Assembly (NCBI GenBank): GCA_021399395.1
Contig: JAAFKJ010000034.1
Location: 1-20,549 of the forward strand
Direction of reading: 5' to 3'
Source of the DNA: Candidatus Heimdallarchaeota archaeon
Lineage (GTDB): Archaea; Asgardarchaeota; Heimdallarchaeia; Heimdallarchaeales; Heimdallarchaeaceae
Length of the DNA stretch: 20,549 bases
In this document: in pieces, positions 103-19,166 of the stretch
Numbering within the stretch: position 1 is the first letter of the stretch
How the letters are laid out: the number at the start of each line of letters is the position of its first letter
Notes under the pieces: generated by a model
Seen by the model: only the letters and a program-made list of their open reading frames with translations
What the model was told of the DNA's origin: nothing
Database searches by the model: none
Made by a program: the position numbers and the translations under genes

Positions 103-912
103 TCACTCTTTCTTTATCTTTTTAAGTATCTTCTCTACAATTGTTTTGAAAATCGTTTCAACTTGCTCATCTAGTAGAACTGCAGGTCTCCCTTTATCTC
201 CAGCTTCACAGACTTGAGAGATCAATGGGATCGCACCTAAGAAATCTAAAGATAAATCTTCTGCCATCTTCTTCCCTCCATCTTTCTTAAAAATATAAGT
301 TGGTTCATTGCAGTGAGGACAGATAAAACCTGACATGTTTTCTATTATCCCAATTACTGGTGTTTTAGTCACTTGAGCGAAATTAATAGATTTTGTAACA
401 TCAAGCAAAGAAACATTTTGTGGAGTTGTAACAACGACCATTCCATCTAAATCTTTGATTGTTTGAACAATTGAAAGAGGTTCATCACTACTGCCTGGTG
501 GTAAGTCTACTATTAGAAAATCCAATTCACCCCAATTTACATCAGCTAATAGCTGTTTTAGAGCTTTAATCTTCATTGGACCTCTCCAGATTATTGCATT
601 GGTTTTATCTTGAAGTAGAAATTCCATTGAAACAATTTTTATTTTTCCTGCTTCAACTGGTTGGATTTTATTATCTTCTGAGGACATCTGATCATCCTCA
701 ACTCCAAACATTAGTGGAACATTTGGTCCAGTAATATCAGCATCAAGAACTCCGACTTTATATCCCATATTAGATAATGTTTGAGCTATATTTACTGCAA
801 CAGTTGTTTTACCTGTACCGCCCTTCCCTGAAAGAATAGCTATTTTATTCTTAATTTTGGAAAGTGTTTCAGCAATTTTCTTGTCTTCCTCTGTCAGTGG
901 TATTGCTTGCAT
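103..912 (-). CDS. mrp: Mrp/NBP35 (ApbC) family Fe-S cluster carrier ATPase
   Basis: Deviant Walker A SGKGGTGKTT, DADITGP, IIWRGPM, DLPPG, VTTPQ and ENMSGFICPHC. The start was moved from TTG 933 to ATG 912 because AGGAG lies 9 nt upstream of it. Confidence 0.95.
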   Translation of the reverse strand: MQAIPLTEEDKKIAETLSKIKNKIAILSGKGGTGKTTVAVNIAQTLSNMGYKVGVLDADITGPNVPLMFGVEDDQMSSEDNKIQPVEAGKIKIVSMEFLLQDKTNAIIWRGPMKIKALKQLLADVNWGELDFLIVDLPPGSSDEPLSIVQTIKDLDGMVVVTTPQNVSLLDVTKSINFAQVTKTPVIGIIENMSGFICPHCNEPTYIFKKDGGKKMAEDLSLDFLGAIPLISQVCEAGDKGRPAVLLDEQVETIFKTIVEKILKKIKKE

Positions 913-988
913 ACAACATTTCTCCTGATTCAAGATGGTTTGGTAGTCAATCCTTAAAAAGCCAATGATGCGACAACAAATCTATTTT

Positions 989-1007
989 GGTATAAGATTT
1001 TTATACC
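989..1007. promoter_or_regulatory. Palindrome GGTATAA-N5-TTATACC in the divergent intergenic region, overlapping a TATA-like box
   Basis: Perfect 7-bp arms at 989-995 and 1001-1007. It contains TTTTATA on + and TATAAAAA on -. Confidence 0.5.
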
Positions 1008-1062
1008 CATAGTATTTCTGATATTTAGGATTTAAGAAATTTCATCTTTTTGAGGTAAAACT

Positions 1063-2406
1063 ATGAACAAAACAGACTATGATGTGGTTGTAATTGGCGC
1101 TGGTCTTTTAGGTGTGGCAACCGCCTATCATATTAAGAGAAATAATGAGAATCTAAAAATGATGATTGTAGATAAAGCCGCATCAGCTGGAGCAGGGAAT
1201 ACGGCCCAATCTGCGGCTATGTACAGAGACACCTTTTCTTCAGAAGTAAATTTGCAATTAAGTAGTACTACTGTAAACTTCTTCAAACATGTTCAAAATG
1301 AAATGGGAGTTGATTTATCACTAAGAGATATTACCTACTTATGGTTAATGGATCGACAGCAGTTTGAGAAAAATAAATCAGCAATTGAAACCATGCTTGA
1401 AAACAAAATCAGAATAGAAATTCTCAAGAAGGATGACATCAAGGAAAAAATTCCAGAACTCGTTACTGATTTTGATGATAATTCAGAGGCCCAAATGCTT
1501 GGTTTAAGAAATATTGACTTTGGTATCCTCGGTTATGATTGCGGTGAATTAGATGCAGATAAAATCACAAGAGATTTTTACGAAACTGAATTTAAGAAAA
1601 TGGGGGGAGAAACTAGATATTCAACACAAATTACAGAGTTAGTTTTGGAACCTGAGGAAGAGAAATTGGGAATTCCTGGAGAACCCGTGGGATGGCAGAA
1701 GAAGAAGATTGGTTCAGCAGTGACATCAGATGGTAAAATCATTACATCACAGACATTTATTGTTGCGACAGGTGCATGGTCAAATGAGTTGCTCTTACCA
1801 TTGGGAATCAACTCCCAAGTGATGCCTTTGAAGAAGTACATTTTTAGGGTCCAGCACAATAGATTATCAGGGTTCTTAGATAATGAGTTTTTCAATGAAG
1901 AAAAAACCACGCCTTTCTTCATATTTCCAGTACATGGTATTCACGTTAAGCCTGTTAAGTATAATAACAGCATCTGGATTGGAGGGGGATCGGTGGTAGG
2001 AAAACCATTTATCATTACCAATCCAAACAAGGTTAAGGAGGAAACTAATCCTCTTGATGATACTGAAGCAAATCCGAGAGATTATGAATTTGATCGTTAC
2101 CTTATACTATCTGAGTATCTCCCTATTCTAAAAGATCTACCCTTAACAAACAGTTGGGCTGGTTTTTATGCGATGAATACAATAGACAAAAACCCAGTAA
2201 TTTTCAAACCTATAGGAATTAAAGGCTTACAAGTAGTAACAGCTGGATCAGGGAGTGGGATAATGAAAGCTGATGCAATTGGAAGGATAGCTGAGGCACT
2301 TTATCAAAATAAGGAAGTCGCAGAACTTTATGGAGGAGTATCGTTCAAAGTTTCAAGACTAGGTTTGAAAAATAGAGACGTTGATAAAGAATTCTTTGTC
2401 ATTTAA
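1063..2406 (+). CDS. FAD-dependent oxidoreductase, DAO / sarcosine oxidase beta / glycine oxidase-like
   Basis: N-terminal DVVVIGAGLLG (GxGxxG), GNTAQSAA, VATGAWS, WAGFY and C-terminal GSGSGIMKADAIG. GAGGT RBS upstream. Substrate cannot be determined. Confidence 0.88.
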   Translation: MNKTDYDVVVIGAGLLGVATAYHIKRNNENLKMMIVDKAASAGAGNTAQSAAMYRDTFSSEVNLQLSSTTVNFFKHVQNEMGVDLSLRDITYLWLMDRQQFEKNKSAIETMLENKIRIEILKKDDIKEKIPELVTDFDDNSEAQMLGLRNIDFGILGYDCGELDADKITRDFYETEFKKMGGETRYSTQITELVLEPEEEKLGIPGEPVGWQKKKIGSAVTSDGKIITSQTFIVATGAWSNELLLPLGINSQVMPLKKYIFRVQHNRLSGFLDNEFFNEEKTTPFFIFPVHGIHVKPVKYNNSIWIGGGSVVGKPFIITNPNKVKEETNPLDDTEANPRDYEFDRYLILSEYLPILKDLPLTNSWAGFYAMNTIDKNPVIFKPIGIKGLQVVTAGSGSGIMKADAIGRIAEALYQNKEVAELYGGVSFKVSRLGLKNRDVDKEFFVI

Positions 2407-2447
2407 ACACCTTAAGAAGAAAAAATCGTGATTGTTTCTTAATAAAA

Positions 2448-2455
2448 TATATATA
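2448..2455 (+). promoter_or_regulatory. TATA box of a probably leaderless transcript
   Basis: TATATATA preceded by an A-rich tract, ending about 22 nt before ATG 2477. No clear RBS. Confidence 0.5.
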
Positions 2456-2476
2456 GACCCATATTTCCTTTGGGAT

Positions 2477-3595
2477 ATGGTCTGGGTTTCCTATAGTATT
2501 GGCATTGTTTCTCTGCTTGTATTAATTACAGGAGTCAGTCTAGTAATATTAAAACAAAGCCATTCATCTTCTCGAGCAGTCTATTATTTCCTAGGTTTAA
2601 TTGTTGGTGTTATGGGATGGATTATCGGAAATATGTTCGTAGTTTACTTCAGTCAACTAGGACCAAACCCTAAAGTAGAATCTCAAGCATTACTTAGTTC
2701 AAGATTAGCTACCATAATAAGCATGGTTGGAATGGTATCAAGCATTTTATTCGTAAGAATGGTTAGTAAAAAACGAGCACATAGTTCCTTAGTTCTAGCA
2801 ATCGCACTATTTCTCTTTGGAGGAGTTGTTGGTTTAACTATATCGAGCGATTATGTTGTTATACATCAACTCATAGAATCAGGAGGATATTATTTCTACA
2901 TAGCTAAAACAAGTATAACGTGGGTTATTTTCGATGCAAGCTTACCACTTTTTGCTGGAGTTGTGTTATTGATATATTTAATACCACAACGGAATTTTAC
3001 TGAAAGAAAATACCGTAGAGTTATTGAGATCATGATTATAGGAGTAATAGTGGCATTCTTTGTTAGTGCGCTAATTTTTGCAATTAGAAAGATATTGTAC
3101 GCAACAACAGGAAAAATCTTGTTATTGCATATGGAATATATATCTGTAGCAGTTGGTGCTTTAATAATCAGTATATCAATATATTTAGGAGGGATTGAAG
3201 CTTTCTTCTATTCCACCGAAGTACATGCAATTTTTATTTTTAAGAAAGATGGAACTTCTATTTATTCTGCATCTGCAAAACGAAATATCACAATTGGTGG
3301 GCATAGTGTTTTAGGAGTAATAGCAGCTTTCTCTGAATTTGCAGGTGAACTTGTAGGTGTTAAAGTCTATCCTAAGGAAATTGACTTAGGAGATAGTTGT
3401 CTTATGATTGAACTACATGAAAACCATGTTTGTTTCCTAAGCAGCAGATTTTCAACACATTACCTTAGACAAGCAACAAAGAATTTGCTTATTAATTTAA
3501 CAGACAATCAAAATGAAGAAGAGATTTCTTCTTTAGTAGAACAATTTTTTGCTTTCAAACCTAGAGTTCAAAGTAATTTGAATACCACTAGCTGA
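2477..3595 (+). CDS. Membrane protein with about 7 TM helices and a C-terminal longin-like domain
   Basis: Seven hydrophobic segments, then about 120 soluble residues: VHAIFIFKKDGTSIYS ... VLGVIAAFSEFAGELVG ... KEIDLGDSCLMIE ... VCFLSS ... YLRQATKNLL. ATG 2477 is preferred over TTG 2432 because the TATA box lies between them. Confidence 0.7.
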   Translation: MVWVSYSIGIVSLLVLITGVSLVILKQSHSSSRAVYYFLGLIVGVMGWIIGNMFVVYFSQLGPNPKVESQALLSSRLATIISMVGMVSSILFVRMVSKKRAHSSLVLAIALFLFGGVVGLTISSDYVVIHQLIESGGYYFYIAKTSITWVIFDASLPLFAGVVLLIYLIPQRNFTERKYRRVIEIMIIGVIVAFFVSALIFAIRKILYATTGKILLLHMEYISVAVGALIISISIYLGGIEAFFYSTEVHAIFIFKKDGTSIYSASAKRNITIGGHSVLGVIAAFSEFAGELVGVKVYPKEIDLGDSCLMIELHENHVCFLSSRFSTHYLRQATKNLLINLTDNQNEEEISSLVEQFFAFKPRVQSNLNTTS

Positions 3596-3606
3596 TACAA
3601 TTTTTG

Positions 3607-3628
3607 TTTTCTAAGCTTTTTCTAAGCT
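3607..3628. repeat. Perfect tandem 11-bp repeat (TTTTCTAAGCT)x2 upstream of leuS
   Basis: 3607-3617 and 3618-3628 are identical. Confidence 0.8.
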
Positions 3629-3727
3629 CAAAGATAACTCTTTTAATCTGTAATCAATGAGACCAGCAAAGAATAAATATCCACTTTCATGGATAAGAAT
3701 TTGTGCAAAATTCAAGGAGGATTCTGG

Positions 3728-6658
3728 ATGACCTTTCTAGATGACATACGTAAAATTGAAGATAAATGGCAAAAAAAATGGAAAGAAGACCAAGTATTCG
3801 TAGGTAAGATAAATGATACAAAACCAAAATGGTTTCTTACAGTACCTTACCCATATGCTTCTGGCCCTCTGCACATAGGACATTGTAGAACATATAATAT
3901 CGGAGATATTTTCGCAAGGTATAAACGACAAAGTGGTTATAACGTATTTTGGCCTATGGCTTTCCATATTACTGGAACACCAGTTCAAGCAGTTGCTTAT
4001 CAAATTAAGATTAAGAATGAAAAAATCTGGAAAATATATGAGGATTATGTTTCTATTTATGAAAAAGATCCAACTAAAATAAAGAGTATTGTTCAATCAT
4101 TCGAGAATCAAGAAAATGTGGCTAATTTCTTCGCTAATGCAATCATTAAAGATTTCCTAGGTATGGGATTCTCACTAGACGATACTCGTCAGTTCACTAC
4201 AGGAGATAAAGAATATAACAAATTCATCGAATGGCAATATAAAATTCTCAATGAGAAGAATCTGATAACAAAGGGAAGTTATCCCATTCTATGGTGTGTT
4301 AATGATAAGAATGCAGTTGGCGAGGATGATATTCAGGAAGGAGATCTACTAAAAGTTGAAGTTAATGATTTTGTTGGGATCAAATTTAGATTGAACAGTG
4401 GTACGTCCTTAGTTGCAGCAACTTTGCGTCCTGAAACAATCTATGGTGCTACAAACGTTTGGATTAATCCAGATGCAGATTACAATGAAATTGAAATATC
4501 TGGTGAAAAATGGGTTGTTTCAAAAGAAGCAACAGAGAAGCTCAAAGAACAAGATCATGAAATAGTTGTCATTAGAAAGATAAAGGGAAAAGAATTTGTT
4601 AACCAAGAAGTAACAGTTCCTATAACAAAAGAAAAAATCCCTATCTATCCCGCAACTTTTGTGGATACAGATCATGCTACAGGAGTGGTTTATAGTGTAC
4701 CTGCACATGCCCCTTATGATTATGCAGCATTAGTTGATCTGCAAAATGATGAAGAAACAATTGGCAAGTATACTTTAGACAAAGAACGTCTAGAAAAGAT
4801 CAAACCTATATCGTTAATATCAGTCAAGGGATATGGCGATTTTCCAGCTGTTGAACTCTGTGAGATGTTAGGGGTTAAAAACCAAAAGGATAAACAGAAA
4901 TTAGAAAAAGCAACCCAGACCATCTACAAAGATGAATTCTATTCAGGTATTATGAAAGATATTACAGGAAAATTCAAAGGATTAAAGGTCGAAGAAGCCA
5001 AAGATGCTGTAGCTAAGAAACTAAAGGAAGATAATTTAGCAACAGAAGTTTACGAAACTTCAAAAAAAGCACTTTGTAGATGTGGTGGTCAAATAATTGT
5101 TGCTGTTTTAGAAGATCAGTATTTCCTCAATTATGGAGATAAGAAATGGAAAGAAACCGCTTTCAAAGCCCTAAATAAGATGGTAATCACACCAGAAAAA
5201 TACAGACAAGCCTTTGAAAACACCTTTAATTGGCTTGATAAGAGACCTTGTGTTAGAAAAAGAGGATTAGGTACAGAATTTCCTTTAACCAAAGGCGAAG
5301 GATGGATTATTGAATCGCTGAGCGATTCTGTAATCTACATGGCATTTTATACAGTGATTAGAACAATCAGAGAAAATAATATCAAACCAGAACAGCTGAA
5401 ACCAGAATTATTTGACTATATCTTTTTAGATAAAGGGAAAATCAAGGAAGTTAGCCAGTTTACTGATATCTCTGAGGAATACATCACAGAAATGAAAGAA
5501 TCATTTGAATATTATTATCCCAATGATTTGAGACATACTGCAATTGCTCACATCTCAAACCATTTATCATTTGCAATATTTCACCATGTTGCGGTTTTTC
5601 CAGAAAAATACTGGTTACCAGCTTTTTCATTGAATGAACTACTGATACGTGAAGGACAAAAAATGGGTAAGAGTAAAGCAAATGTTATCCCCATCGCACA
5701 AATTCCTGAAAAATATAGTGTGGATTTAACTAGATTACATCTAGCTTCAATAGCTACAGCAGATACAGTTGTAGATTGGAGAGAAACAGAGGTTAATTTT
5801 GCATTGCAAAGATTGAGAAAATTCTGGGAGTATGCCAATAGAAGTGTAGATGTAGTAAAAACAGAGATATTGAACCCAGCATTTCCTTCAAGAATATTCA
5901 GATCTTCTATTAAAACAAATCTACAAAAAGCTCTTACAGCAATTGGAGATTTCAACATCAGAGATTATGTTTTAGAAGGTTTTTATGGAAACATTAGAGT
6001 TATAGACGAATATCACAAAATCGCAGAACATCTTCAAAGAGAAGAAAGAGAGACTGTTTTAAAAGAAGCAATTGAACAGATTATTATTGTCATGGCACCA
6101 GTTATTCCTCACATATCGGAAGAGCTACATGAAAGGATGCAGCATGAGGGGTATGTTTCTCTAAAACAGTTCCCAAACATAGAGATAACAGAAGATGACA
6201 AACAAAACGCCTTACAGGCTAAATTCATAAGCAACCTTCTTGATGATATTGAAGAAATAGTAAAACTTGTGAAAACAACACCACAGAAGATTCATATATA
6301 CATCAACGCAGATTGGAAGAACGAATTATATAGAGTAGCCCAAGAGATTTTTGAAGATGAAGCAGTGAAAATAGGTAAAATAATGGGTGTCGCAAAAGAA
6401 AACAAGGTTCTGAACAAATATATGAAGGAAATTGCTGATGAAGCAAAACAAATGCTTAGAGACCCATCTATTTTTAGGATAGAAATGCTCTCTGCTGAAA
6501 AACAGAAAAAGGCAATAGAAGGGTATAAAGAGTTCATAAGTAGGACTTTTGTTAATGCCGAAATCTTGGTCCATGTGGCTGGCGATAAAGATATTTATAA
6601 TCCTCAGAAGAAAGCTCAAAAAGCTCGACCAATGAGACCAGCTTTACTCTTAGAATAG
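3728..6658 (+). CDS. leuS: Leucine--tRNA ligase, archaeal/eukaryotic type
   Basis: PYPYASGPLHIGH (HIGH), CP1 editing motifs ATLRPET and TGVVYSVPAHAPYDY, IESLSDSVIY, KMGKS, and C-terminal KARPMRPALLLE. GGAGG 7 nt before ATG 3728 supports this start over 3689. Confidence 0.97.
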   Translation: MTFLDDIRKIEDKWQKKWKEDQVFVGKINDTKPKWFLTVPYPYASGPLHIGHCRTYNIGDIFARYKRQSGYNVFWPMAFHITGTPVQAVAYQIKIKNEKIWKIYEDYVSIYEKDPTKIKSIVQSFENQENVANFFANAIIKDFLGMGFSLDDTRQFTTGDKEYNKFIEWQYKILNEKNLITKGSYPILWCVNDKNAVGEDDIQEGDLLKVEVNDFVGIKFRLNSGTSLVAATLRPETIYGATNVWINPDADYNEIEISGEKWVVSKEATEKLKEQDHEIVVIRKIKGKEFVNQEVTVPITKEKIPIYPATFVDTDHATGVVYSVPAHAPYDYAALVDLQNDEETIGKYTLDKERLEKIKPISLISVKGYGDFPAVELCEMLGVKNQKDKQKLEKATQTIYKDEFYSGIMKDITGKFKGLKVEEAKDAVAKKLKEDNLATEVYETSKKALCRCGGQIIVAVLEDQYFLNYGDKKWKETAFKALNKMVITPEKYRQAFENTFNWLDKRPCVRKRGLGTEFPLTKGEGWIIESLSDSVIYMAFYTVIRTIRENNIKPEQLKPELFDYIFLDKGKIKEVSQFTDISEEYITEMKESFEYYYPNDLRHTAIAHISNHLSFAIFHHVAVFPEKYWLPAFSLNELLIREGQKMGKSKANVIPIAQIPEKYSVDLTRLHLASIATADTVVDWRETEVNFALQRLRKFWEYANRSVDVVKTEILNPAFPSRIFRSSIKTNLQKALTAIGDFNIRDYVLEGFYGNIRVIDEYHKIAEHLQREERETVLKEAIEQIIIVMAPVIPHISEELHERMQHEGYVSLKQFPNIEITEDDKQNALQAKFISNLLDDIEEIVKLVKTTPQKIHIYINADWKNELYRVAQEIFEDEAVKIGKIMGVAKENKVLNKYMKEIADEAKQMLRDPSIFRIEMLSAEKQKKAIEGYKEFISRTFVNAEILVHVAGDKDIYNPQKKAQKARPMRPALLLE

Positions 6659-6662
6659 GTAA

Positions 6663-6702
6663 TTTTTTTCCACTTCTTATTTTTTCTTATTTTCGCTTAT
6701 TT
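6663..6702 (+). terminator. Oligo-T / pyrimidine-rich archaeal-type terminator
   Basis: A T7 run plus three CTTATTT units directly after the leuS stop. Confidence 0.6.
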
Positions 6703-6781
6703 CTCGAGTGTATAATGTTCTCTCGCCATATAATATTGCCTAATGGATAGCTTTTTAAAAGACTCTTTGGCAATTACACAA

Positions 6782-6847
6782 GAACATAAATGTATTTCTA
6801 AAAAAGTAATATTTTATGTTCATAAATGAACGGATGTATTAAATACA
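6782..6847. promoter_or_regulatory. Cluster of inverted repeats upstream of the DAK2 gene; candidate operators
   Basis: GAACATAAA (6782-6790) / TTTATGTTC (6813-6821); GTTCAT-AA-ATGAAC (6818-6831); TGTATT-A-AATACA (6835-6847). Confidence 0.4.
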
Positions 6848-6905
6848 GCATAAGTCACAATAATACCGAAACCGTAAAATTAAGCTTAAAACGTGGGGCA
6901 AAATA

Positions 6906-7592
6906 ATGATGGTACCTAACTCAAAAATCGATGGAATCACTCTTAAAAAAATGATGATTACCGCAGCTCATAATCTTGAGCAAACCAAAGAAGAAATAAA
7001 TGCAATAAATGTTTTTCCAATTCCAGATGGAGACACTGGTGTTAATTTGTTTTTAACAATAAGAACAGTTGTTGAGCAATTTGATGAAGTTGATCCTAGT
7101 TCCATTCAAGAAGCAGCCCAGTTAATTACTAAAGGAAGTTTTCTTGGAGCAAAAGGAAATTCTGGTGTAATTATCTCTCAATTTTTCCAAGGTTTCAGTG
7201 CAGAAATTGAAGAACATAATGAAGTAGGAATTGAAGAATTTGCAAATGCACTTGAAGCAGGTTCTGAATGGTCATATGACGCAGTTTTACACCCCACTGA
7301 GGGCACTATTCTCACAGTCATAAAAGATACAGCAGAAAAAGCAAAAGCAATTGTTGCCAATGGTGGAGATTGGTCAGAAATGATTGTTGAAACTTATAAA
7401 ACAGCTGTTAAATCTCTTGAAAACACACCAAATCTTCTGCCAGTTCTGAAAGAAGCTGGAGTAGTTGATGCAGGAGCCAAAGGTTTTGTTAATGTGTGGT
7501 TAGGATGGTGTTTCCAATTAATGGATACACTTGGAATAAAAATTGCCCACATCGAAGAAGAATTTGAAAAATTACAAAATGGAACCTTATAA
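6906..7592 (+). CDS. Stand-alone DAK2 domain protein resembling the N-terminal kinase domain of fatty acid kinase FakA/YloV
   Basis: INAINVFPIPDGDTGVNL, GAKGNSGVIISQ, PTEGTILTV and TPNLLPVLKEAGVVDAGAKG are FakA-type DAK2 signatures. It is only 228 aa. Confidence 0.9.
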   Translation: MMVPNSKIDGITLKKMMITAAHNLEQTKEEINAINVFPIPDGDTGVNLFLTIRTVVEQFDEVDPSSIQEAAQLITKGSFLGAKGNSGVIISQFFQGFSAEIEEHNEVGIEEFANALEAGSEWSYDAVLHPTEGTILTVIKDTAEKAKAIVANGGDWSEMIVETYKTAVKSLENTPNLLPVLKEAGVVDAGAKGFVNVWLGWCFQLMDTLGIKIAHIEEEFEKLQNGTL

Positions 7593-7643
7593 TCCATTTC
7601 TTTTCTAAATTTTATTTTAAAAAATAAGAGAATGATATATCCG

Positions 7644-9572
7644 TCATTCATAATTTTTGTTTTGTAATTGAACCTTATTTATGAAATCAGGAATCTTCAC
7701 TCCATATTCCACTTTGTTATCTTTAGATCTAACATCTCTAACAGCGATGGTTTCCGCTTCTATTTCCTTATCACCAACATTGATGATATATGGGACTTTC
7801 TGCATAGTAGCATGTCGTATTTTATACTCCATTCTTTCACCACTAAGATCTGCTTCAGCTCTGACCCCAGCTTCAACAAGTTCAAGAGCCACTTTCTTGG
7901 AATATTCTGCATGAGAATCAGTTATTGGAATCACGACTGCTTGAACAGGGCTTAACCATATAGGCATCTTTCCTGCGTAATTCTCTACAATTATTGCTAA
8001 GAATCTCTCCATACAACCGTAAATGACTCGATGAATTACAAATGGGCGATGTTTTTGTCCATCGTCTCCGAGATAATTAATATCGAATCTATCTGGAAGG
8101 TTGAAATCAACCTGGATAGTTGCTAATTGCCATCGTCTGCCAATGGCATCCTTAACGTCTACGTCTATTTTTGGACCATAGAACGCACCATCACCCTCTT
8201 TGATTTTATATTTTATATCAACTCTTTCCATAGCTTTCATTAAAGCATCAGTTGCATGATCCCATCCAGCATCATCACCAATAGCTTTTTCTGGTTTAGT
8301 ACTAATGAAATACTCCCATTCTTCAAAACCAAAAGCTTTGTAAAAAAGCTCTACCATTTCAATTACTCCAACTATTTCATCTTCTAGTTGATCTGGTAAC
8401 ATAAAGAGATGAGCATCATCTTGAGTGATACTTTGTACCCTAAAAAGACCATGCAAAGCTCCAGACAATTCGCGACGATAAACAGTTCCCATCTCTCCTA
8501 ATCGAACAGGTAGTTCACGATATGAGTAAGCTTTTCTGTTGTAAATCATCATATGACCTGGACAGTTCATTGGTTTAACAAACCACTTGTCTCCTTTGAG
8601 ATCAACAGGGAACATATTTTCCAGGAAATATTCAATATGACCGCTGGTTTGCCAGACTAACTCCTTGAAAATATGGGGAGTTTGAACGACTTCATACCCA
8701 GCTTTTCTATGTTCTTTAATCCAGAAGGCTTTCAAAATCTCAAGAATAACTGTACCTTTTGGATAGATTAATGGCATTCCTGGACCCCATTCATCTGCAG
8801 TACCAAATAGATCTAATTGCGGTCCTATTATTCTATGATCTCTCTTCTTGGCTTCTTCGAGCATGTTAAGATGTTTTCTAAGTTGTTTAGCATTGTAAAA
8901 TGCCACACCATAAACCCTTTGTAGAGATTCTCTTCTTGCTTCACCTCTCCAGAATGCTGAAGAAGCATTTAGAATCTTAATTCCCTTAATCCTTCCAGTT
9001 GAAGGAATATGTGGTCCTCTACAAAGATCTTTGAATATGCTCTTTCCATGAGAATAGAAAGAAACATTCTCAGCTTCAGTCTCTTCTAAGATTTCAACTT
9101 TGAATTTGTTTTTATCCTTAGCCTTGTAATAGTCGATAGCTTCCTTTAAAGACATCTCATCTCTCTTAAATTCAGAATTCTCTTCTATGACTTCATCTAC
9201 TCTTTTCTGAATTTTTTCTAGATCCTCCTGAGAGAACGGTTCTTTTACATAGAAATCGTAATAGAATCCCACAGGTTCAATACTTGGTCCTATAGTTGGT
9301 CTTGCATCAGGGAATAGATCAACGACAGCTCCAGCCATGATATGTGCAGCGCTATGATTTAAAATATCTAGAGATTCTTCTGATTTTTCTGTAATTATCT
9401 CAAGTTTACCATCTTTTGTAACTTCAAAGAATAAATCGACCAAATTGCCATCAATTTTTGCTGCGATAGCTGCTTGTGCCAATCCTGGTCCTATTTGTTG
9501 AGCAACATCTAATATAGTGCTATTCTGTTGTACATCCAATATATTTCCATCTGGTAGTTCTATTTTAACCAT
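7644..9572 (-). CDS. thrS: Threonine--tRNA ligase, bacterial/eukaryotic type (TGS, N2 editing, catalytic and anticodon-binding domains)
   Basis: IELPDG (TGS), HSAAH and DLCRGPH (editing), RDHR, KPMNCPGH, QDDAH, GAFYGPKID and IHR. GGTGA RBS upstream. Confidence 0.97.
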   Translation of the reverse strand: MVKIELPDGNILDVQQNSTILDVAQQIGPGLAQAAIAAKIDGNLVDLFFEVTKDGKLEIITEKSEESLDILNHSAAHIMAGAVVDLFPDARPTIGPSIEPVGFYYDFYVKEPFSQEDLEKIQKRVDEVIEENSEFKRDEMSLKEAIDYYKAKDKNKFKVEILEETEAENVSFYSHGKSIFKDLCRGPHIPSTGRIKGIKILNASSAFWRGEARRESLQRVYGVAFYNAKQLRKHLNMLEEAKKRDHRIIGPQLDLFGTADEWGPGMPLIYPKGTVILEILKAFWIKEHRKAGYEVVQTPHIFKELVWQTSGHIEYFLENMFPVDLKGDKWFVKPMNCPGHMMIYNRKAYSYRELPVRLGEMGTVYRRELSGALHGLFRVQSITQDDAHLFMLPDQLEDEIVGVIEMVELFYKAFGFEEWEYFISTKPEKAIGDDAGWDHATDALMKAMERVDIKYKIKEGDGAFYGPKIDVDVKDAIGRRWQLATIQVDFNLPDRFDINYLGDDGQKHRPFVIHRVIYGCMERFLAIIVENYAGKMPIWLSPVQAVVIPITDSHAEYSKKVALELVEAGVRAEADLSGERMEYKIRHATMQKVPYIINVGDKEIEAETIAVRDVRSKDNKVEYGVKIPDFINKVQLQNKNYE

Positions 9573-11519: not shown

Positions 11520-12551
11520 TTATTCTATAAACTCATACTCTTGAATTTTGGGACTTTTTTGCTGAATCATTTTTGTCAGCAATTCGTCTCCTTCAGCTTT
11601 AATTATTCTTATTGGTATTTCTGGGAATTTACTGTGGTTTGATATAACCTGGTCTTTCAGTTGTATAGAAGATTCAATATTATCAAGTAGAGCTTTCAAA
11701 GATGCTTGAGTTCCAACATTTTTAGAGCCAGCACATAAAATTATAACCTTAGATTTATCCCAAGGATTGGGGAGCATTGCTACAATTCCAGTTAATAATC
11801 CCACTGGGGATTCTTCACTATAGGTAACGTCAGTCAATGTGCTATGAATATTCTTACTTGAAGGAGTAATGAATTTAATTGGGAGTTTTTCATCATATAA
11901 ACTCATAATCTCCGATGTTATCCTATTGATAGCACCAGAGCCTATTACCAACATATTTTCATTCTTTGATTGTATTGCTTGATAGTCTAAAACAGAATTG
12001 ATAAGAATATTTTCGATTGGTATTTTCTTGTTTTTATTTGCCCAATAAGATAGCATCTGAGAGATTTCAGGAACAAAAAGAGCGTCAATTGTACTAGCAG
12101 CTTCCGCCATCCATGAACCAAAAACAATTGTTAATCGCAACGTATCTCCCATAATCAAACAATCAGGAAAGTCATCCCAGGTATACTTAAATTCAAGATC
12201 CATAATAGGTGGTTTCTCTAAATCTCGAAATTCTTGCAGTAAACTTCTGAAGAAGTCGTTTGATATTAGATCATGATTAGGAGAGTAAAAAACCCTATCA
12301 GAACCACCAAATTTTACTTCTTGTCTTTTGATGAGGTTTAATTCTGTCAAACGATCCAGTATATTATAGATTGTACTTCTATTTGTAATTGGTAATTTAT
12401 CTAATAATTCAGATGCTGAAACAGCTTTGGAAAAGGATATTATTTGTGATAGAACCATTCTTCTTGTAGAATCAGAAAGATAGTTCCTTATCTCTTTTTG
12501 TTCTTCCATGTGACCATCAATTCCATATAATTCATTCTTCTTTGTATTCAA
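11520..12551 (-). CDS. Winged-HTH transcriptional regulator with a C-terminal S-layer-like alpha/beta domain
   Basis: N-terminal DSTRRMVL...SASELL...NRSTIYNILDRLTELNLIKR...RVFYS (ArsR/TrmB-like). C-terminal NMLVIGSGAINRIT and LPNPWDKSKVIILCAG...GTQA. The start could be TTG 12551 or ATG 12509. Confidence 0.7.
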   Translation of the reverse strand: MNTKKNELYGIDGHMEEQKEIRNYLSDSTRRMVLSQIISFSKAVSASELLDKLPITNRSTIYNILDRLTELNLIKRQEVKFGGSDRVFYSPNHDLISNDFFRSLLQEFRDLEKPPIMDLEFKYTWDDFPDCLIMGDTLRLTIVFGSWMAEAASTIDALFVPEISQMLSYWANKNKKIPIENILINSVLDYQAIQSKNENMLVIGSGAINRITSEIMSLYDEKLPIKFITPSSKNIHSTLTDVTYSEESPVGLLTGIVAMLPNPWDKSKVIILCAGSKNVGTQASLKALLDNIESSIQLKDQVISNHSKFPEIPIRIIKAEGDELLTKMIQQKSPKIQEYEFIE

Positions 12552-12612: not shown

Positions 12613-13761
12613 ATGAGAGATATTATGATTACAGAAGAAGATGTCATACCAATTTTGAAAGAATTAATAAAAATAAAAACTGAAAATCCTCCAGGAAATA
12701 CTATCGGAGCTGTAAATTATATCAAAGGCATTTTTGAAAAGTTTGGAATTGAAACCAAGATTCAAAATTATGCAGAAGAGAGAGCTAATGTCATTGCTCA
12801 TTATGGAGATAGTGATGAAACAGTCATATTAACAGGGCACCTAGATACAGTACCTTCAGGAGATGAGACAAAATGGAAATATCCCCCTTTTGCTGCAGAA
12901 GAGCATGAAGGAAGGATTTATGGAAGGGGTTCTACAGACATGAAAGGTGCAGATGCAGCTTTTATAGCAATTCTAATAGCATTGAAAAAAAATGACATCA
13001 AGTTGAAGAAAAAAATAATCTTCTTAGGCACATCAGATGAAGAAATTGGAATGGATGGCGCTGTTGCAGCAAAACAAGAAGGTATAATGAAAGGTTGTGA
13101 GTTTGTTCTTGTTGGTGAGCCTACAGAGTTACAAGTAGGAATCGCTGAAAAAGGGACTTTTTGGGTAAAAGTTAAAGTTTATGGGGAATCAGCTCATGGT
13201 TCAACACCGCATCTTGGAATTAGTGCTATTGAGGGGGCAACGATTCTTATACCAAAGATGAAAGAAGTGATTCCTGATTTTATTCATGAGATAATGGGTA
13301 AGTCAACTCTTAATATAGGAAAGATTTCTGGTGGAACTCTGATTAACGTAGTACCAGAATATTGTGAATTTAGATGCGATTATAGGCTGGTTGCTGATAA
13401 TCTACGAGAAGGAGTTAGAAGTAAAATCAAAGAGATAATCGATGATTTCAATAAAACAGGTCCTGCAAGAGCAGAAATAGAAATGATTCATGAAGTTCCA
13501 GCAATAGAATTGATTCGAGAAGACGAGGTTGTTAAAAAACTGAAAAAGAAAGCAATTGATTTAGGTAGAGAGAAGATTATTGGTTTGAATTATGGAACAG
13601 ACGGAGCCATGTTAATCCCTGATTATAATGTACCATTTGTTATAATGGGACCAGGAAAGCTTGATCAATTACATGTCACAGATGAATATACGGAGAAACA
13701 AGAAGTAATAGATTATGCTAATTTGGTTTACGACACTTTGGTTGAAACTTATTCAGAGTAA
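12613..13761 (+). CDS. M20 family metallohydrolase (ArgE/DapE-like)
   Basis: GHLDTVP, YGRGSTDMKG, DEE, GEPT, AHGS, NVVP, GTD and GPG...H. Confidence 0.93.
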   Translation: MRDIMITEEDVIPILKELIKIKTENPPGNTIGAVNYIKGIFEKFGIETKIQNYAEERANVIAHYGDSDETVILTGHLDTVPSGDETKWKYPPFAAEEHEGRIYGRGSTDMKGADAAFIAILIALKKNDIKLKKKIIFLGTSDEEIGMDGAVAAKQEGIMKGCEFVLVGEPTELQVGIAEKGTFWVKVKVYGESAHGSTPHLGISAIEGATILIPKMKEVIPDFIHEIMGKSTLNIGKISGGTLINVVPEYCEFRCDYRLVADNLREGVRSKIKEIIDDFNKTGPARAEIEMIHEVPAIELIREDEVVKKLKKKAIDLGREKIIGLNYGTDGAMLIPDYNVPFVIMGPGKLDQLHVTDEYTEKQEVIDYANLVYDTLVETYSE

Positions 13762-13776
13762 TCAGAGTAAGAGTAA
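13753..13776 (+). repeat. Tandem duplication of the gene end giving three in-frame TAA stops
   Basis: TCAGAGTAA TCAGAGTAA GAGTAA. Confidence 0.8.
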
Positions 13777-13871
13777 ACCTTCTCTTCCTTTTTTAAAGGA
13801 GATTTTAAATTTCTGACTAATTTTTGATAATTTGTAGAAAATATTTTTAACAAGAAGAAAAGAACACACTT

Positions 13872-15344
13872 ATGCAAGATAATACAGAGAATCTTGAAGA
13901 CCTTGTTTCTTACGGTATAAAATGCTCAGATAAAGAGGGAGTTCAGTATGCAGATGTGAAGTTAATGCACACCCATATGGAAGACATTTCTTTCAAAAAT
14001 AGCATACTTGAAAGGTTAAACAGAGTTGATAAGAGAGGAATTGGGATTAGATGCTTAGTTAACAGAAGTTGGGGTTTTGCTAGTACAAATGAATTAACTA
14101 GAGATTCAATAACGGATTTGGTAAAAAAAGCAGTTAAGATTGCGAAAGCATCTTCGCTGGTAAAGAAATTTGATATAGAATTAGCTGAAGAACCAATTCA
14201 CGAGGATAAAGTTTCCACTCCAATGAAAAAAGACCCATTTACTGTTGAACTAAAAGAAAAAATAGAAATTCTTGAGGAAAGTTCTAAGAGAGCTAAAGCT
14301 GTGTCTGATAAAATCAAGGTGTCTACAAGTCATTATGTTGGACGTAAAGACCATATGATCTTGCATACAACTGAAGGAACTAAGATAGACCAAACCATTA
14401 CATGGTGTGGAGGGGGTGTAGCTTCTACTGCTATAGATGGGGGAGAGGCTCAAACACGAAGTCTACCTGCTAGTTTCAGAGGTGATTTCCATACTGATGG
14501 ATATGAATACTTTGAGAGCCTTAATCTTATTGAAGTATCAGAGGGAGCAGCTGAAGAAGCTATTAAGTTGCTTACTGCAAAAAAAATGCCTAGTGGAGAG
14601 TCAACAATCATTCTTGGGCATTCTCAACTAGCTCTTCAAGTTCATGAAAGCTGCGGACACCCAACTGAATTAGATAGAGCAATAGGATACGAAGCAGCTT
14701 ATGCAGGAACAAGTTTTCTAACAACAGATCTTCTTGGAACTGGCTTCAAATATGGTAATGAGCAAGTTACTATGGTAGCTGACGCAACTGTTCCTGGAGG
14801 GTTAGGTACATTCTACTATGATCATGAAGGAGTTAAAGCTCAGAGAAATATCCTTGTTGATAAAGGGATTTTTACTGGATATTTATCATCCAGAGAAACT
14901 GCAAAAGCAGTTGGTTTGGGAAGAAGTTCAGGTGCATCTAGATCGATGGGATATGATAGGATACCAATCATTAGAATGACAAATGTAAATCTGGAACCAG
15001 GTGACTGGGAATTTGATGAACTTATTGCTGATACAAAAGATGGCTACTTCTTGGAAACAAATCGAAGCTGGAGCATTGATGATATCAGAATGAATTTCCA
15101 ATTCGGAACAGAAATAGGTTGGAGGATAGAAAACGGAGAGATGACAGAGATGATCAAAAATCCAACTTATGAAGGGATAACTCCAAAGTTCTGGGGAAAC
15201 GTTAATGGAATATGTTCTAAAAAACACTGGAAGACATTTGGAACGCCAAATTGTGGTAAAGGAGAACCTGGACAAGCAGCTTATGTTGGTCACGGAATCG
15301 CCCCAACTAGATTTGAAAATGTGCGAATAGGGATTCTTAAATAA
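13872..15344 (+). CDS. tldD: TldD family zinc metalloprotease
   Basis: GIGIR...WGFAST, metal-binding HESCGHPTELDR, YDHEG, PIIRMTN and C-terminal CGKGEPGQ. Confidence 0.93.
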   Translation: MQDNTENLEDLVSYGIKCSDKEGVQYADVKLMHTHMEDISFKNSILERLNRVDKRGIGIRCLVNRSWGFASTNELTRDSITDLVKKAVKIAKASSLVKKFDIELAEEPIHEDKVSTPMKKDPFTVELKEKIEILEESSKRAKAVSDKIKVSTSHYVGRKDHMILHTTEGTKIDQTITWCGGGVASTAIDGGEAQTRSLPASFRGDFHTDGYEYFESLNLIEVSEGAAEEAIKLLTAKKMPSGESTIILGHSQLALQVHESCGHPTELDRAIGYEAAYAGTSFLTTDLLGTGFKYGNEQVTMVADATVPGGLGTFYYDHEGVKAQRNILVDKGIFTGYLSSRETAKAVGLGRSSGASRSMGYDRIPIIRMTNVNLEPGDWEFDELIADTKDGYFLETNRSWSIDDIRMNFQFGTEIGWRIENGEMTEMIKNPTYEGITPKFWGNVNGICSKKHWKTFGTPNCGKGEPGQAAYVGHGIAPTRFENVRIGILK

Positions 15345-16424
15345 TTAATCAAAAAATCCCTTAGCATTTTTTATGAAATTAGAATTACATGTTATATCAG
15401 TACAATCTATAAATTGGTCAATAGAGCCTATTTGTTTTAAGTCTTTTAAAGGAGGTTCGATTATTTTTTTCAATTCCTCAATTATGTCATCGACATTAAT
15501 AATCATCTGAGGTCTACTAAAGAAAGGTTTGATTTTACCTTCAATTTCTCCTGTAATCTGAAGTTTATTCTGTTCCTCTAGAATCATTAAATATGCATCG
15601 CAAAGACTATTTTCTATTATTTCATTTTCTGTTTCGTTTAGTATACCTAAAAGAAAAGGATATATCGTTTTTGCAATTGGTAATTGCTGAAAGATAACAG
15701 TTAGCCATTTTGGATAAGGAATATATCTTCTTTTCAAGATAAACAACATCTCTATTAGCATCCTAACTAATCTTGATGTCTCGATCCGAGTCCCCAATTC
15801 GTCTCCAAGCATTCGTGTTCTTCCAACAAATGCAATCTCTTGTGATATACGATTCCACTGAGAGAGAATTTTATATTTCCAAACATTATCTGGAAAATAC
15901 TGCAATTTTGATCTTGCGACAGTTAATTCTCCAAGAGTATTGAAAAAAATCTTTCCAGATGTAAATTCTAATAATCGTTGTTCTGGTAGTAGTAACCAAT
16001 CCTTCTCTGAGAGTTCTAATGTCTCAATATCTAAATACTCTTTAAGAAACGATTTCACTGAATAGATTTTAATACGATGGTTTACTTCGCCTTCGCTAAT
16101 AAGTTCAGGTCTCATGGTTTTATCTTCATTAAATACCCAATTAGTAGAGTGACCAAGGAAATCATAGGGTAATCTTTCTCTGAACATATCATTCATAGTT
16201 TGTTTAATAGAATCATATCTTGATTCCTCGACAAATATATACAATTTTAGTCCCCAATCATGATCTTTAGAGATTTCATCATCTAAACCCATAACCTCAG
16301 ATCCTGGTCCAATTAATGCAGCACCATATTTTAATTCAGGAAACTCTGTATCTATTACACTTTTAACAACTTCATAAAAGAAACGTTCTGATAAATCAAT
16401 ACCAGAAATTGATTGTCTTTCCAT
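15345..16424 (-). CDS. DUF4037 domain protein with a nucleotidyltransferase-like N-terminus
   Basis: GPGSEVMGLDDEISKDHDWG, WLLLPEQRLLEFTSGKIF and RYIPYPKW. ATG 16424 is preferred over the ORF-track start at 16445. Confidence 0.85.
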   Translation of the reverse strand: MERQSISGIDLSERFFYEVVKSVIDTEFPELKYGAALIGPGSEVMGLDDEISKDHDWGLKLYIFVEESRYDSIKQTMNDMFRERLPYDFLGHSTNWVFNEDKTMRPELISEGEVNHRIKIYSVKSFLKEYLDIETLELSEKDWLLLPEQRLLEFTSGKIFFNTLGELTVARSKLQYFPDNVWKYKILSQWNRISQEIAFVGRTRMLGDELGTRIETSRLVRMLIEMLFILKRRYIPYPKWLTVIFQQLPIAKTIYPFLLGILNETENEIIENSLCDAYLMILEEQNKLQITGEIEGKIKPFFSRPQMIINVDDIIEELKKIIEPPLKDLKQIGSIDQFIDCTDITCNSNFIKNAKGFFD

Positions 16425-16480
16425 AATAAGAAAAAACACTATCAAAATAAAAGATATTCGGAATCTCTTTCTTATAATTC

Positions 16481-17432: not shown

Positions 17433-19166
17433 TTATCTTAAGAGGTCAAAATATTTGGTAAATTTTAGAACATATCCTAATCCACCTATTTTTAGTTTTC
17501 CAGCTAAAATTGCTTTTACTGGACTTACCTTTCCTAAGCCAAGACCCATAAAAGTTGGTAGTGTTGTTATGATGTAACCATTTGTATTTTTCTTTGCTGT
17601 TTTAATCTCTTCTCGAAGATTATCTATCTGTTTAAATTCAATTTTACCATTCTGTATCTTAACTACTATGGCTTTAGAATCTTCTTTTGCAGAAATAAGA
17701 AGTGAATAAGCATGTTCTTTGTAATCTTTTTTGAATTGTGGATTGACATTAAGACCTTTTAACATTGCAAAAATGATTGAAGCAAATCCTTCATACGGTT
17801 CAACTTGTCTGTATAGAGGTAAAACCATTTCCATTGCTTTTCTATACCGTTCCACAATCTCATCAATTATCTTCTCATCCATAGGTGTAGATAAAATAAA
17901 AGCAGTTACACCTCTAGAAACAGCATAGATACCATTAATGTTAAGAGCTAGAGTTAGATATTTTGATAATTCAAAAGTAGGTATTAGGTTGAAAACAGTT
18001 TGACGACCATCTACAGCTGGTTCTTCAAACAGATAAACGTATGCTATTGATTGAATACCACCAACTTGCCCTTTGATCTTTAAATCTTTGAGGACAGCTC
18101 TTAATCCTTCACGTAATCGAACACCCAGTTTAGAGAGACGCTCAACTTCAACTTCATCATATAGTTCCATTGCAACTTTGCCAGCAGCCATTGTCAGAGC
18201 ATTTCCGCTAAAAGTACCAGAATGAGTGACAAAGTCTTTTTTAGTGGGGTTGAACTGATCAATAATCTCGCGTTTTCCACCAAAGGCGCCGACTGGTAAA
18301 CCTCCTCCAATGGTCTTTCCTAAGGCAGTTAAATCAGGAATAACATTATGGTATTTTTGAGCTCCACCTGTGGATACTCTATAAGTGATTACTTCATCAA
18401 AAATCAATAGAATGTCATACTTTGTTGTTAATTTGCGCAATCCTTGAAGATACTCTTTTGTAGCTAAAACTCCTCCACCAGAGCCCATTACGGGTTCGAT
18501 AATTAGAGCAGCTATCTGTTTATGATGTTTTTTCATGATTTTCTCTGCAGCTTTCAAGTCATTGTATGGAACTATGAAAACATCGTTCAGAATAGTATCA
18601 GGTACTCCTTTCTCTGTAGTTGCGATAGGCACATATCCTGCAGTTAGATTAGGCGTAATGTTAACCTCAACATAATCATGAGACCCATGATATCCTCCTT
18701 CTGTTTTGATTATTTTGTCCTTGCCAGTATATCTACGAGCAGCACGAATTGCGAACATTGTAGCTTCAGTTCCAGAGTTACAGAATCTTAGCAATTCAAT
18801 TGAAGGAGTTCTTTCACAGAGTATTTTTGCCAACTCATATTGAAGCTGCATCGGTGATGCATGTGCTGTTCCCTCTTTAGCTTGACTTTGAATCGCTTTA
18901 ACAATTTCTGGATGAGCATGACCATGAATATTTACTGTCATACTGTTCAGAATATCTATGTATTTATTTCCATCTACATCATAGAGATAACACCCTTCAC
19001 CTTTGACTGCAAAAAAAGGATATGGATAATAATGTGCAACATTTCTAGTTCCTCCTCCAGGAAGCCATTTTTGAGCTTCTTCAAAATGTTTTTTTGAAGT
19101 AGGAGTCATAGATTCGTATTTCTCAACAATTTGCTGTTTTATAATTTCTATTTCTTCTGGCAACAT
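17433..19166 (-). CDS. Class III PLP aminotransferase (GSA aminomutase-like) fused to a C-terminal SCP2-like domain
   Basis: LPGGGTR, DVDGNKYID, FCNSGTEA, GGYHG, FDEVIT, LGKTIGGGLPVGA and HSGTFSGN. An extra 120 or so residues end in TTLPTFMGLGLGKVSPVKAILAGKLKIGG. Confidence 0.88.
   Translation of the reverse strand: MLPEEIEIIKQQIVEKYESMTPTSKKHFEEAQKWLPGGGTRNVAHYYPYPFFAVKGEGCYLYDVDGNKYIDILNSMTVNIHGHAHPEIVKAIQSQAKEGTAHASPMQLQYELAKILCERTPSIELLRFCNSGTEATMFAIRAARRYTGKDKIIKTEGGYHGSHDYVEVNITPNLTAGYVPIATTEKGVPDTILNDVFIVPYNDLKAAEKIMKKHHKQIAALIIEPVMGSGGGVLATKEYLQGLRKLTTKYDILLIFDEVITYRVSTGGAQKYHNVIPDLTALGKTIGGGLPVGAFGGKREIIDQFNPTKKDFVTHSGTFSGNALTMAAGKVAMELYDEVEVERLSKLGVRLREGLRAVLKDLKIKGQVGGIQSIAYVYLFEEPAVDGRQTVFNLIPTFELSKYLTLALNINGIYAVSRGVTAFILSTPMDEKIIDEIVERYRKAMEMVLPLYRQVEPYEGFASIIFAMLKGLNVNPQFKKDYKEHAYSLLISAKEDSKAIVVKIQNGKIEFKQIDNLREEIKTAKKNTNGYIITTLPTFMGLGLGKVSPVKAILAGKLKIGGLGYVLKFTKYFDLLR

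Follow-up and report, generated by a model that had tools for sequence, protein, structure and literature searches.

A conserved Asgard membrane protein combining a seven-helix bundle with a longin tail, a candidate dimeric receptor or anchor

Several eukaryotic membrane proteins, i.e. Ragulator-LAMTOR1, SLC38A9 and LYCHOS/GPR155, couple to Rag GTPases via longin/roadblock complexes. Asgard archaea encode dozens of eukaryote-like small GTPases and many longin/roadblock domains, and their membrane recruitment and the pairing with regulators are an open problem. Dimers of roadblock and longin domains are binding platforms for small GTPases (PMC10933270), e.g. in MglB, TRAPP, Mon1-Ccz1 and Ragulator. 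Asgard GTPase-longin proteins and an NPRL2-like longin fused to two-component domains are known from sections of a preprint (Liu et al., 2020; 10.1101/2020.10.19.343400). A 2026 preprint (10.64898/2026.10.28.762692) mentions "7TM proteins" of Asgard archaea, along with a structural cluster called "class C GPCR", and gives no detail on them. A stretch of 20,549 nucleotides from a Candidatus Heimdallarchaeota archaeon (assembly GCA_021399395.1, contig JAAFKJ010000034.1, positions 1 to 20,549; the window) encodes a protein of seven transmembrane (7TM) helices followed by a longin-type tail. This 7TM-longin architecture is conserved across the phylum. With a probability of about 0.4, this conserved integral membrane protein is read here as a dimeric receptor or anchor offering a longin platform to a client.

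The open reading frame (ORF) list of the window contains an ORF at 2432-3595 (+), which opens with TTG. The gene is placed at 2477-3595, encoding 372 amino acids (aa; P0001), because all 12 close homologues in the alignment begin with MVW at the Met encoded at 2477. These are the coordinates of a sequence-only reading that preceded this analysis. It had described seven hydrophobic segments and a soluble tail, without a kinase, cyclase or helix-turn-helix (HTH) output domain. This architecture is confirmed. A Kyte-Doolittle scan and AlphaFold2 both give seven segments, and searches of Pfam, NCBIfam and PDB sequences agree on the lack of such an output domain. Neither the whole protein nor the family profile had a significant match in these three collections; P0001 against Pfam yielded nothing passing E 0.01, with two weak rows far under their cut-offs. 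The gene and its tail comprise the following features.

2477..3595, strand +: whole gene of the 7TM-longin protein P0001, 372 aa, stop codon included (ORF list, translation, start from the 12-homologue alignment)
3221..3550, strand +: predicted cytoplasmic longin domain, residues 249-358, starting four residues after the seventh transmembrane helix (AlphaFold2, fold searches, transitive Pfam link)
3299..3397, strand +: helix a1, loop and strand b3, residues 275-307, predicted symmetric dimer interface (conservation, homodimer co-fold)

In the structural models, the tail is a longin fold. AlphaFold2 placed strands at residues 249-256 and 261-266, a helix at 275-293, strands at 301-303, 308-314 and 317-323, and helices at 328-339 and 347-358. 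A model of the tail alone, built from a 20-row alignment (A3), has the same order b-b-a-b-b-b-a-a with a pLDDT (predicted local distance difference test value) of 87.2 and a predicted template modelling (pTM) score of 0.80. Both models show the element order of longins: an N-terminal helix is missing, and helices at the C-terminal end pack on the sheet. A beta-beta-alpha-beta-beta-beta-alpha pattern had been noticed earlier at about 3218-3560; the model places it at 3221-3550 and adds a second C-terminal helix. A tri-longin layout was not found: the protein has one longin domain, residues 249-358, and the rest forms the 7TM bundle.

Structural comparison of the tail with VIA-align ranked Fuzzy of the CPLANE complex first (7q3d_C; Z 10.7, root mean square deviation (rmsd) 2.8, 107 aa), followed by TRAPP Bet5 (3cue_C) and TRAPPC1 (7b6d_C), both at Z 10.3. 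The sigma subunits of AP-3, AP-2 and AP-4 and mu N-terminal domains reached Z 9.4-10.1 (AP-3 sigma 10.1), Mon1-Ccz1 (5ldd_E) Z 9.6, and the longins of VAMP7 and Sec22 Z 8.6-9.1 (VAMP7 9.1). Roadblock proteins (MglB, Asgard roadblocks, LAMTORs) scored Z 8-9.4, and a solved Lokiarchaeota longin Z 7.5. Judged by their titles, all 50 rows are members of one group comprising longin, roadblock and SRX proteins. Neither a PAS nor a GAF domain was among these 50 rows; such a fold had been named beforehand as speaking against the longin-like tail, for which the best matches are longins. The top Foldseek match of the tail was again 3cue_C (E 7.1e-4, TM-score 0.62). Longin matches cover residues 1-118 of the 129 tail residues. 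Roadblock matches align only to residues 2 to about 103 and hence leave out the C-terminal helices.

Among the closest described systems are eukaryotic longin platforms and roadblock proteins. With Fuzzy-Inturned (CPLANE), Mon1-Ccz1 and TRAPP Bet5/TRAPPC1-Trs23, the tail shares fold and element order at Z 9.6-10.7. The predicted tail dimer likewise uses b3 and a1, and a paralogous domain passes the Pfam family Fuz_longin_1. These eukaryotic regulators are soluble, heterodimeric, and built from three longin domains or several subunits, whereas a single longin is joined here to a 7TM bundle. MglB and the Asgard roadblocks (MK-D1, Thorarchaeota; passages of PMC10933270) are prokaryotic GTPase-binding platforms with the same core sheet and the same predicted dimer mode. 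The roadblock has an N-terminal helix; the 7TM-longin tail has two C-terminal helices instead, which is the longin arrangement.

An independent sequence link, although transitive, joins the family to the Pfam longins. A profile made of 7TM-longin proteins only (A2) matched, with E 5.5e-14, a TPR protein of the same genome (contig C102) in its C-terminal domain. This domain passes Fuz_longin_1 (PF19036) with 26.7 bits against a cut-off of 26.1. Among 20 domains of the tail type, four match Fuz_longin_1 (best E 3.6e-6) and two match Intu_longin_1 (PF19031). A search of PDB sequences with the tail profile listed TRAPP Bet5 first at E 0.34, which is not significant, and otherwise chance matches. 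The roadblock profile and the tail profile had no ORF in common in the own genome.

The tail is predicted to dimerize. Co-folding of two tail copies gave an interaction prediction score from aligned errors (ipSAE) of 0.58, the best control reaching 0.00. Of the proteins solved as homo-pairs, 20 of 30 attain the mark passed here; of those solved as single chains, 1 of 23 does. The runs share at least 90% of contacts, and the partner pLDDT is at least 74. In the symmetric interface, strand b3 pairs with its twin (tail residues 54-64, protein residues 297-307) and the a1 helices pack (tail 34-50, protein 277-293). The best conserved stretch of the tail coincides with this predicted interface (A284, F288, G294, P299, E301, I302, D303). 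Symmetric pairing via b3 and a1, in the roadblock/longin mode, is thus supported at the level of a model.

The full-length protein was modelled from a 25-row family alignment (A2), with a mean pLDDT of 84.1 and a pTM of 0.74. Kyte-Doolittle hydrophobic segments lie at residues of about 3-25, 36-58, 76-95, 104-125, 147-169, 183-206 and 216-240. The transmembrane (TM) helices, given with the AlphaFold2 boundaries, and the hairpin between the fourth and the fifth are as follows.

2480..2566, strand +: TM1, residues 2-30, predicted to run from outside to inside (AlphaFold2 helix, hydropathy, positive-inside count)
2576..2653, strand +: TM2, residues 34-59, with W48 conserved in 19/21 (AlphaFold2, hydropathy, positive-inside count)
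2669..2764, strand +: TM3, residues 65-96; the inside loop after it, SKKRAH, is basic (AlphaFold2, hydropathy, positive-inside count)
2783..2842, strand +: TM4, residues 103-122, with a conserved GG motif at 115-116 (AlphaFold2, homologue alignment, positive-inside count)
2855..2908, strand +: predicted extracellular beta-hairpin between TM4 and TM5, residues 127-144 (AlphaFold2 strands 127-133 and 138-144)
2915..2998, strand +: TM5, residues 147-174, with W149 and Q171 each conserved in 21/22 (AlphaFold2, family alignment)
3005..3109, strand +: TM6, residues 177-211, after the most basic inside loop, QRNFTERKYRR (AlphaFold2, hydropathy, positive-inside count)
3131..3208, strand +: TM7, residues 219-244 (AlphaFold2, family alignment, sequence)

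Conserved residues of the outer face, W149, H218, E220 and those of the hairpin, are situated at outer helix ends or in the hairpin itself. D125, Y126, Y138 and F140 in the hairpin region are invariant across the 12 close homologues. At the outer end of TM7, H218 is conserved in 22 and E220 in 24 of 24 sequences of the wider family alignment. Lysine and arginine residues were counted in the three inside loops and in the outside segments of the 19 full-length rows among the 25. The means were 9.9 inside and 3.9 outside, and the inside value was higher in every row (19/19). The N-terminus is therefore predicted outside and the tail in the cytoplasm, a topology shared with G protein-coupled receptors (GPCRs). 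The sequence-only reading had considered an extracellular tail incompatible with its proposal; the positive-inside rule predicts the opposite.

Foldseek found weak matches of the full-length model to GPCRs and rhodopsins (E about 5e-4, TM-score 0.34-0.42). VIA-align compared the 7TM part with 48,161 chains, yielding alignments of 210-230 residues at rmsd 3.6-4.5. Designed GPCR-like folds ranked highest (Z 15.9 and 15.6), followed by Ste2 (15.0), GABA-B and mGlu5 (14.5-14.7), class A receptors (13-14), microbial rhodopsins (12.5-13.8) and the GPCR-like domain of LYCHOS (12.8). Helical bundles attain about Z 13 through arrangement alone, and hence the 7TM part is read as a GPCR/rhodopsin-like arrangement, not as homology. 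No Pfam 7tm family was among the matches at E <= 1 for P0001 and the family members. A retinal protein of the microbial rhodopsin type was ruled out, since TM7 lacks the retinal-binding lysine; residues 216-244 contain none.

A resemblance of the TM region to HisKA_7TM-type sensors, suggested by the sequence-only reading, was not borne out. P0001 did not match HisKA_7TM (PF16927), and a single one of 25 family members reached 21 bits against a cut-off of 28.6. The own genome contained no HisKA_7TM match at E <= 1, and Pfam recognized no HisKA or HATPase domain after the 7TM part of P0001. The fold looks GPCR/rhodopsin-like instead. A feature-based neighbour in the Atlas at 0.85 carries HisKA_7TM on 10% of its members, which is a lead only. 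Longer proteins with this TM part were not found, a weak piece of evidence. Like HisKA_7TM/7TMR-type receptors and GPCRs, the protein has seven helices, a predicted outside N-terminus and a cytoplasmic output domain after TM7. It differs in that no Pfam 7TM family exceeds its cut-off and that a longin serves as output in place of a kinase, a cyclase or a G-protein interface.

Homologues of P0001 were found with E values from 1e-124 to 1e-227. A database clustered at 90% contained 13 relatives, one of them named hypothetical protein of Heimdallarchaeaceae archaeon, and a library of 1.84 billion proteins clustered at 50% contained 21 cluster representatives. Ten named loci all belong to Heimdallarchaeota or "uncultured archaeon" metagenome-assembled genomes (MAGs). 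In a profile search of the phylum, with five candidates scored per genome, 144 of 400 genomes had matches at E <= 1e-10. Matches spanning the TM part and the tail occurred in at least 61 of the 400. Among the matches listed, the window's own family contributes 24 of these genomes, including the own genome; a different family of the same class adds 8, and the remaining 29 are spread over 11 more families. Forty distant loci were inspected; 37 hold a full-length copy of 353-491 aa. Of the three left over, one is a fragment, one a partial copy and one a detection by the tail model only. The guess that similar fusions exist in Asgard genomes was correct, and they are filed as hypothetical proteins.

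Most genomes of the window's family contain two or more copies, typically 2-4 matches. The second 7TM-longin paralogue of the own genome, on contig C86, has 36% identity and is not adjacent. A genome of a sister family (G082) has two tandem 7TM-longin genes on the same strand (C93:10939-12012 and 13711-14769). One family member of 491 aa (L074:1712-3184, -) has extra sequence in or after the longin domain with no Pfam match. No extra domain was recognized in this protein or in the regions after the longin domain of the paralogues.

The same longin type recurs in the own genome behind other protein parts. A hidden Markov model (HMM) of the tail alignment (A3) detected 30 ORFs with a tail-type domain at E <= 1e-4; a separate search gave 33 places. 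Two of the 30 are 7TM-longin proteins. Four have a large N-terminal ectodomain and one TM helix, with the longin about 45 residues later (two on C41, one each on C127 and C179). In about nine others, TPR or helical proteins with a length of 630-690 aa, the longin lies at the C-terminus. Two contain a Ras-like GTPase domain and a longin in one ORF (C31:23773-24765 and C140:6262-7209). In one, on C87, a longin is followed by two TM helices, and the remaining ORFs are soluble. One cytoplasmic module behind unrelated membrane or scaffold parts points to a shared adaptor or output domain, and the distribution suggests that this longin type is a general cytoplasmic adaptor of the lineage.

Some of these proteins have further traits. 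The single-pass receptor-like proteins (C41:3-3068 and C41:3217-6867, in tandem, L009 and L010; C127:12511-13968, L012; C179:689-3931) have a large N-terminal region without a Pfam match and a further C-terminal region after the longin-type domain. TPR-longin proteins are located on C102, C161, C63, C124, C192, C132, C194 and C55 (e.g. L003:1-1881 and L004:1-1905), and comparable ones of about 680 aa turn up repeatedly in the phylum. The Ras-like and longin-type parts of the C31 and C140 ORFs have a Rag-like layout, as do those at C92:22879-23751, where an in-frame TAG lies between the parts.

It is proposed that the 7TM-longin protein acts as a receptor or anchor in the membrane, in the form of a dimer. 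The 7TM bundle would transmit its state via a very short linker to the longin dimer, which would present a platform for binding on the membrane's inner face. As client, one of the 35-45 Ras-superfamily small GTPases of the genome would be most plausible, recruited or regulated in the manner of a guanine nucleotide exchange factor (GEF) or a GTPase-activating protein (GAP). Another longin or roadblock protein would be the next most plausible client. The genome has 35 Ras-family matches in Pfam, 45 ORFs with an own-genome HMM, and 7 roadblock matches. A receptor coupled to a small GTPase is tentatively suggested, at somewhat less than even odds. The GTPase link is drawn from three things: the fold, the known roles of longin/roadblock dimers, and the two GTPase-longin fusions among the 30 ORFs. 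In the most far-reaching version, one polypeptide would signal from receptor to GTPase. A GPCR-like sensor with its own dimeric longin exchange-factor or recruitment platform would pass an outside signal to a Rab-, Rag- or Arf-like GTPase at the cell membrane; this is considered unlikely. The idea is the same as in Ragulator, SLC38A9 and LYCHOS, a polytopic membrane sensor engaging a roadblock/longin platform for a GTPase. In eukaryotes, sensor and platform are separate polypeptides. A Z of 12.8, as for LYCHOS, is of a size that the arrangement of helical bundles alone can give, and no homology is claimed.

Several observations weigh against the dimeric receptor or anchor with a GTPase client. 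Sensing by the 7TM part has a single argument, the conserved residues of its outer face, from which it may be inferred. The window contains no GTPase, roadblock or other signalling gene, and the genes around the 7TM-longin gene have housekeeping roles. The longin ORFs of the genome show no enrichment of Ras-like genes in their vicinity: such a gene lies within 2 kb of 2 of the 30, where random placement gives 2.6 on average, and within 1 kb of 1 of the 30 (random mean 1.9). Among the 40 distant loci, only three lineages have a Ras-like gene at a distance of up to 1 kb, always convergent. It is present in 4 of 4 genomes of one genus, beyond a 260-aa ORF, abuts the gene in one genome, and is 780 bp away in the third lineage. 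The three GTPases are not orthologous and not mutual closest relatives; a fourth neighbour, resembling an HflX-type GTPase as read from its sequence, was left out of the count. Longin folds act in processes without GTPases, i.e. in SNARE regulation and as adaptor sigma/mu subunits, and the latter rank equally high among the structural matches of the tail. No Pfam longin model is matched by the window's own tail. The full-length and tail models were built on shallow alignments of 20-25 rows. The homodimer may have passed on account of its likeness to solved roadblock/longin dimers, which show the same dimer mode. The small-GTPase coupling proposed by the sequence-only reading gained nothing from gene order. 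The sparse Ras-like neighbours match a statement in PMC10933270, according to which the GTPases of Asgard archaea as a rule do not share operons with longin or roadblock genes. Asgard GTPase-regulator pairs cannot be read from gene order, according to the same study.

A passive role is fairly unlikely. The 7TM part would merely fix the longin dimer to the membrane, as LAMTOR1 fixes Ragulator, for constitutive nucleation of a complex without ligand sensing. The attachment of the longin domain to several kinds of membrane anchors in the own genome, the homodimer model that passed and the lack of a ligand-binding domain recognizable by Pfam would fit. A single helix would suffice for this purpose, however, as in the C41 and C127 proteins, and yet the phylum retains all seven. 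The outer face has conserved polar and aromatic residues (W149, H218, E220 in 24/24, and the hairpin residues), and among the 12 close homologues conservation of the 7TM part equals or exceeds that of the tail. Alternatively, the bundle itself may be the working part, a transporter, a channel or a membrane enzyme, the tail serving dimerization or regulation with no GTPase client. The missing genomic link to GTPases, the metabolic and housekeeping neighbours and the GTPase-unrelated roles of longin/roadblock folds, with adaptor sigma/mu among the top matches, are in accordance with this rather unlikely explanation. The best matches of the bundle, however, are receptors and rhodopsins instead of transporters, and a retinal pump is excluded by a TM7 without lysine. 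The same longin type follows the ectodomains of non-transporter receptors and TPR scaffolds, which a shared output or adaptor explains better.

Eukaryotic longin GEFs are heterodimers of paralogues. By analogy, the tail may pair with other longins of the genome and not with itself, as in Mon1-Ccz1 or RagA-RagC, one partner being replaced by a membrane sensor. Candidate partners would be the 7TM-longin paralogue on C86, the TPR-longins and the C-terminal longin of the C31 and C140 GTPase-longin fusions. The 30 domain ORFs of the genome, including two GTPase-longin fusions and two 7TM-longin paralogues, and the 2-4 matches in most genomes of the family offer the material for such a network; the tandem copies of G082 fit the heterodimer idea. 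The predicted homodimer already passes, however, and the paralogues are not adjacent in the own genome, so that pairing among different longins appears quite unlikely. A spurious ORF or a fold artefact is extremely improbable. The model alignments do hold only 20-25 rows, but homologues have E values of 1e-227 to 1e-124, intact copies occur in dozens of genomes, the pLDDT is 84-87, and an independent sequence link connects the protein to a Pfam longin family.

Searches of the Asgard longin/roadblock/GPCR literature, supplementary catalogues aside, yielded no published description of a 7TM-longin fusion. The family may be listed already in the supplementary catalogues of the asCOGs or of the 2026 preprint. 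The fusion is not described in the covered portions of PMC10933270, 10.1101/2020.10.19.343400, 10.64898/2026.10.28.762692, PMC13466386, PMC10307638, 10.1101/2024.02.28.582541 and PMC4917890. In the available preprint text of Liu et al. (2020), "7TM" and "receptor" have no occurrence each, the supplementary asCOG tables being outside the scope of this count. As in the fusions of that preprint, as far as its text describes them, the longin appears as a shuffled signalling module, and the own genome likewise has GTPase-longin ORFs; here, a seven-helix bundle takes the place of the kinase or receiver domain as partner. Longin fusions in Asgard archaea are already known, while a description of a fusion to a seven-helix bundle was not found in the text covered.

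The 7TM-longin family offers a concrete and testable entry to GTPase recruitment in Asgard archaea. It would provide a candidate platform fixed at the membrane in a defined orientation, and it suggests an upstream sensor. If signalling from receptor to GTPase were true, the protein would be the first regulator of small GTPases in Asgard archaea that is integral to the membrane, and a plausible forerunner of eukaryotic membrane recruitment of GTPases via longin/roadblock complexes. Should GTPases play no part, prokaryotic 7TM proteins still have in this family a newly defined output or partner domain.

The G+C content of the window is 33-39%. Neighbouring genes encode a ParA/NUBPL-type ATPase, an FAD oxidoreductase, a leucyl-tRNA synthetase (LeuRS), a DAK2 protein, a threonyl-tRNA synthetase (ThrRS), a major facilitator superfamily (MFS) transporter and metabolic enzymes. 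The order of neighbours around the 7TM-longin gene is conserved only within the genus. The syntenic block at 103-9572, present likewise at the loci L026-L035, comprises the ParA/NUBPL-type ATPase, the FAD oxidoreductase, the 7TM-longin protein, LeuRS, DAK2 and ThrRS. The 7TM-longin protein is its least conserved member, with 58-76% identity within the genus against 68-94% for the neighbours. Two further ORFs are kept in the syntenic loci of the genus, a 343-aa ORF with no Pfam match at E <= 1e-4 (11520-12551, -) and a 366-aa ORF with DUF4037 (15345-16445, -). A class-III aminotransferase of 577 aa (17433-19166, -) has a C-terminal extension of about 190 aa past the Pfam domain, with no family match.

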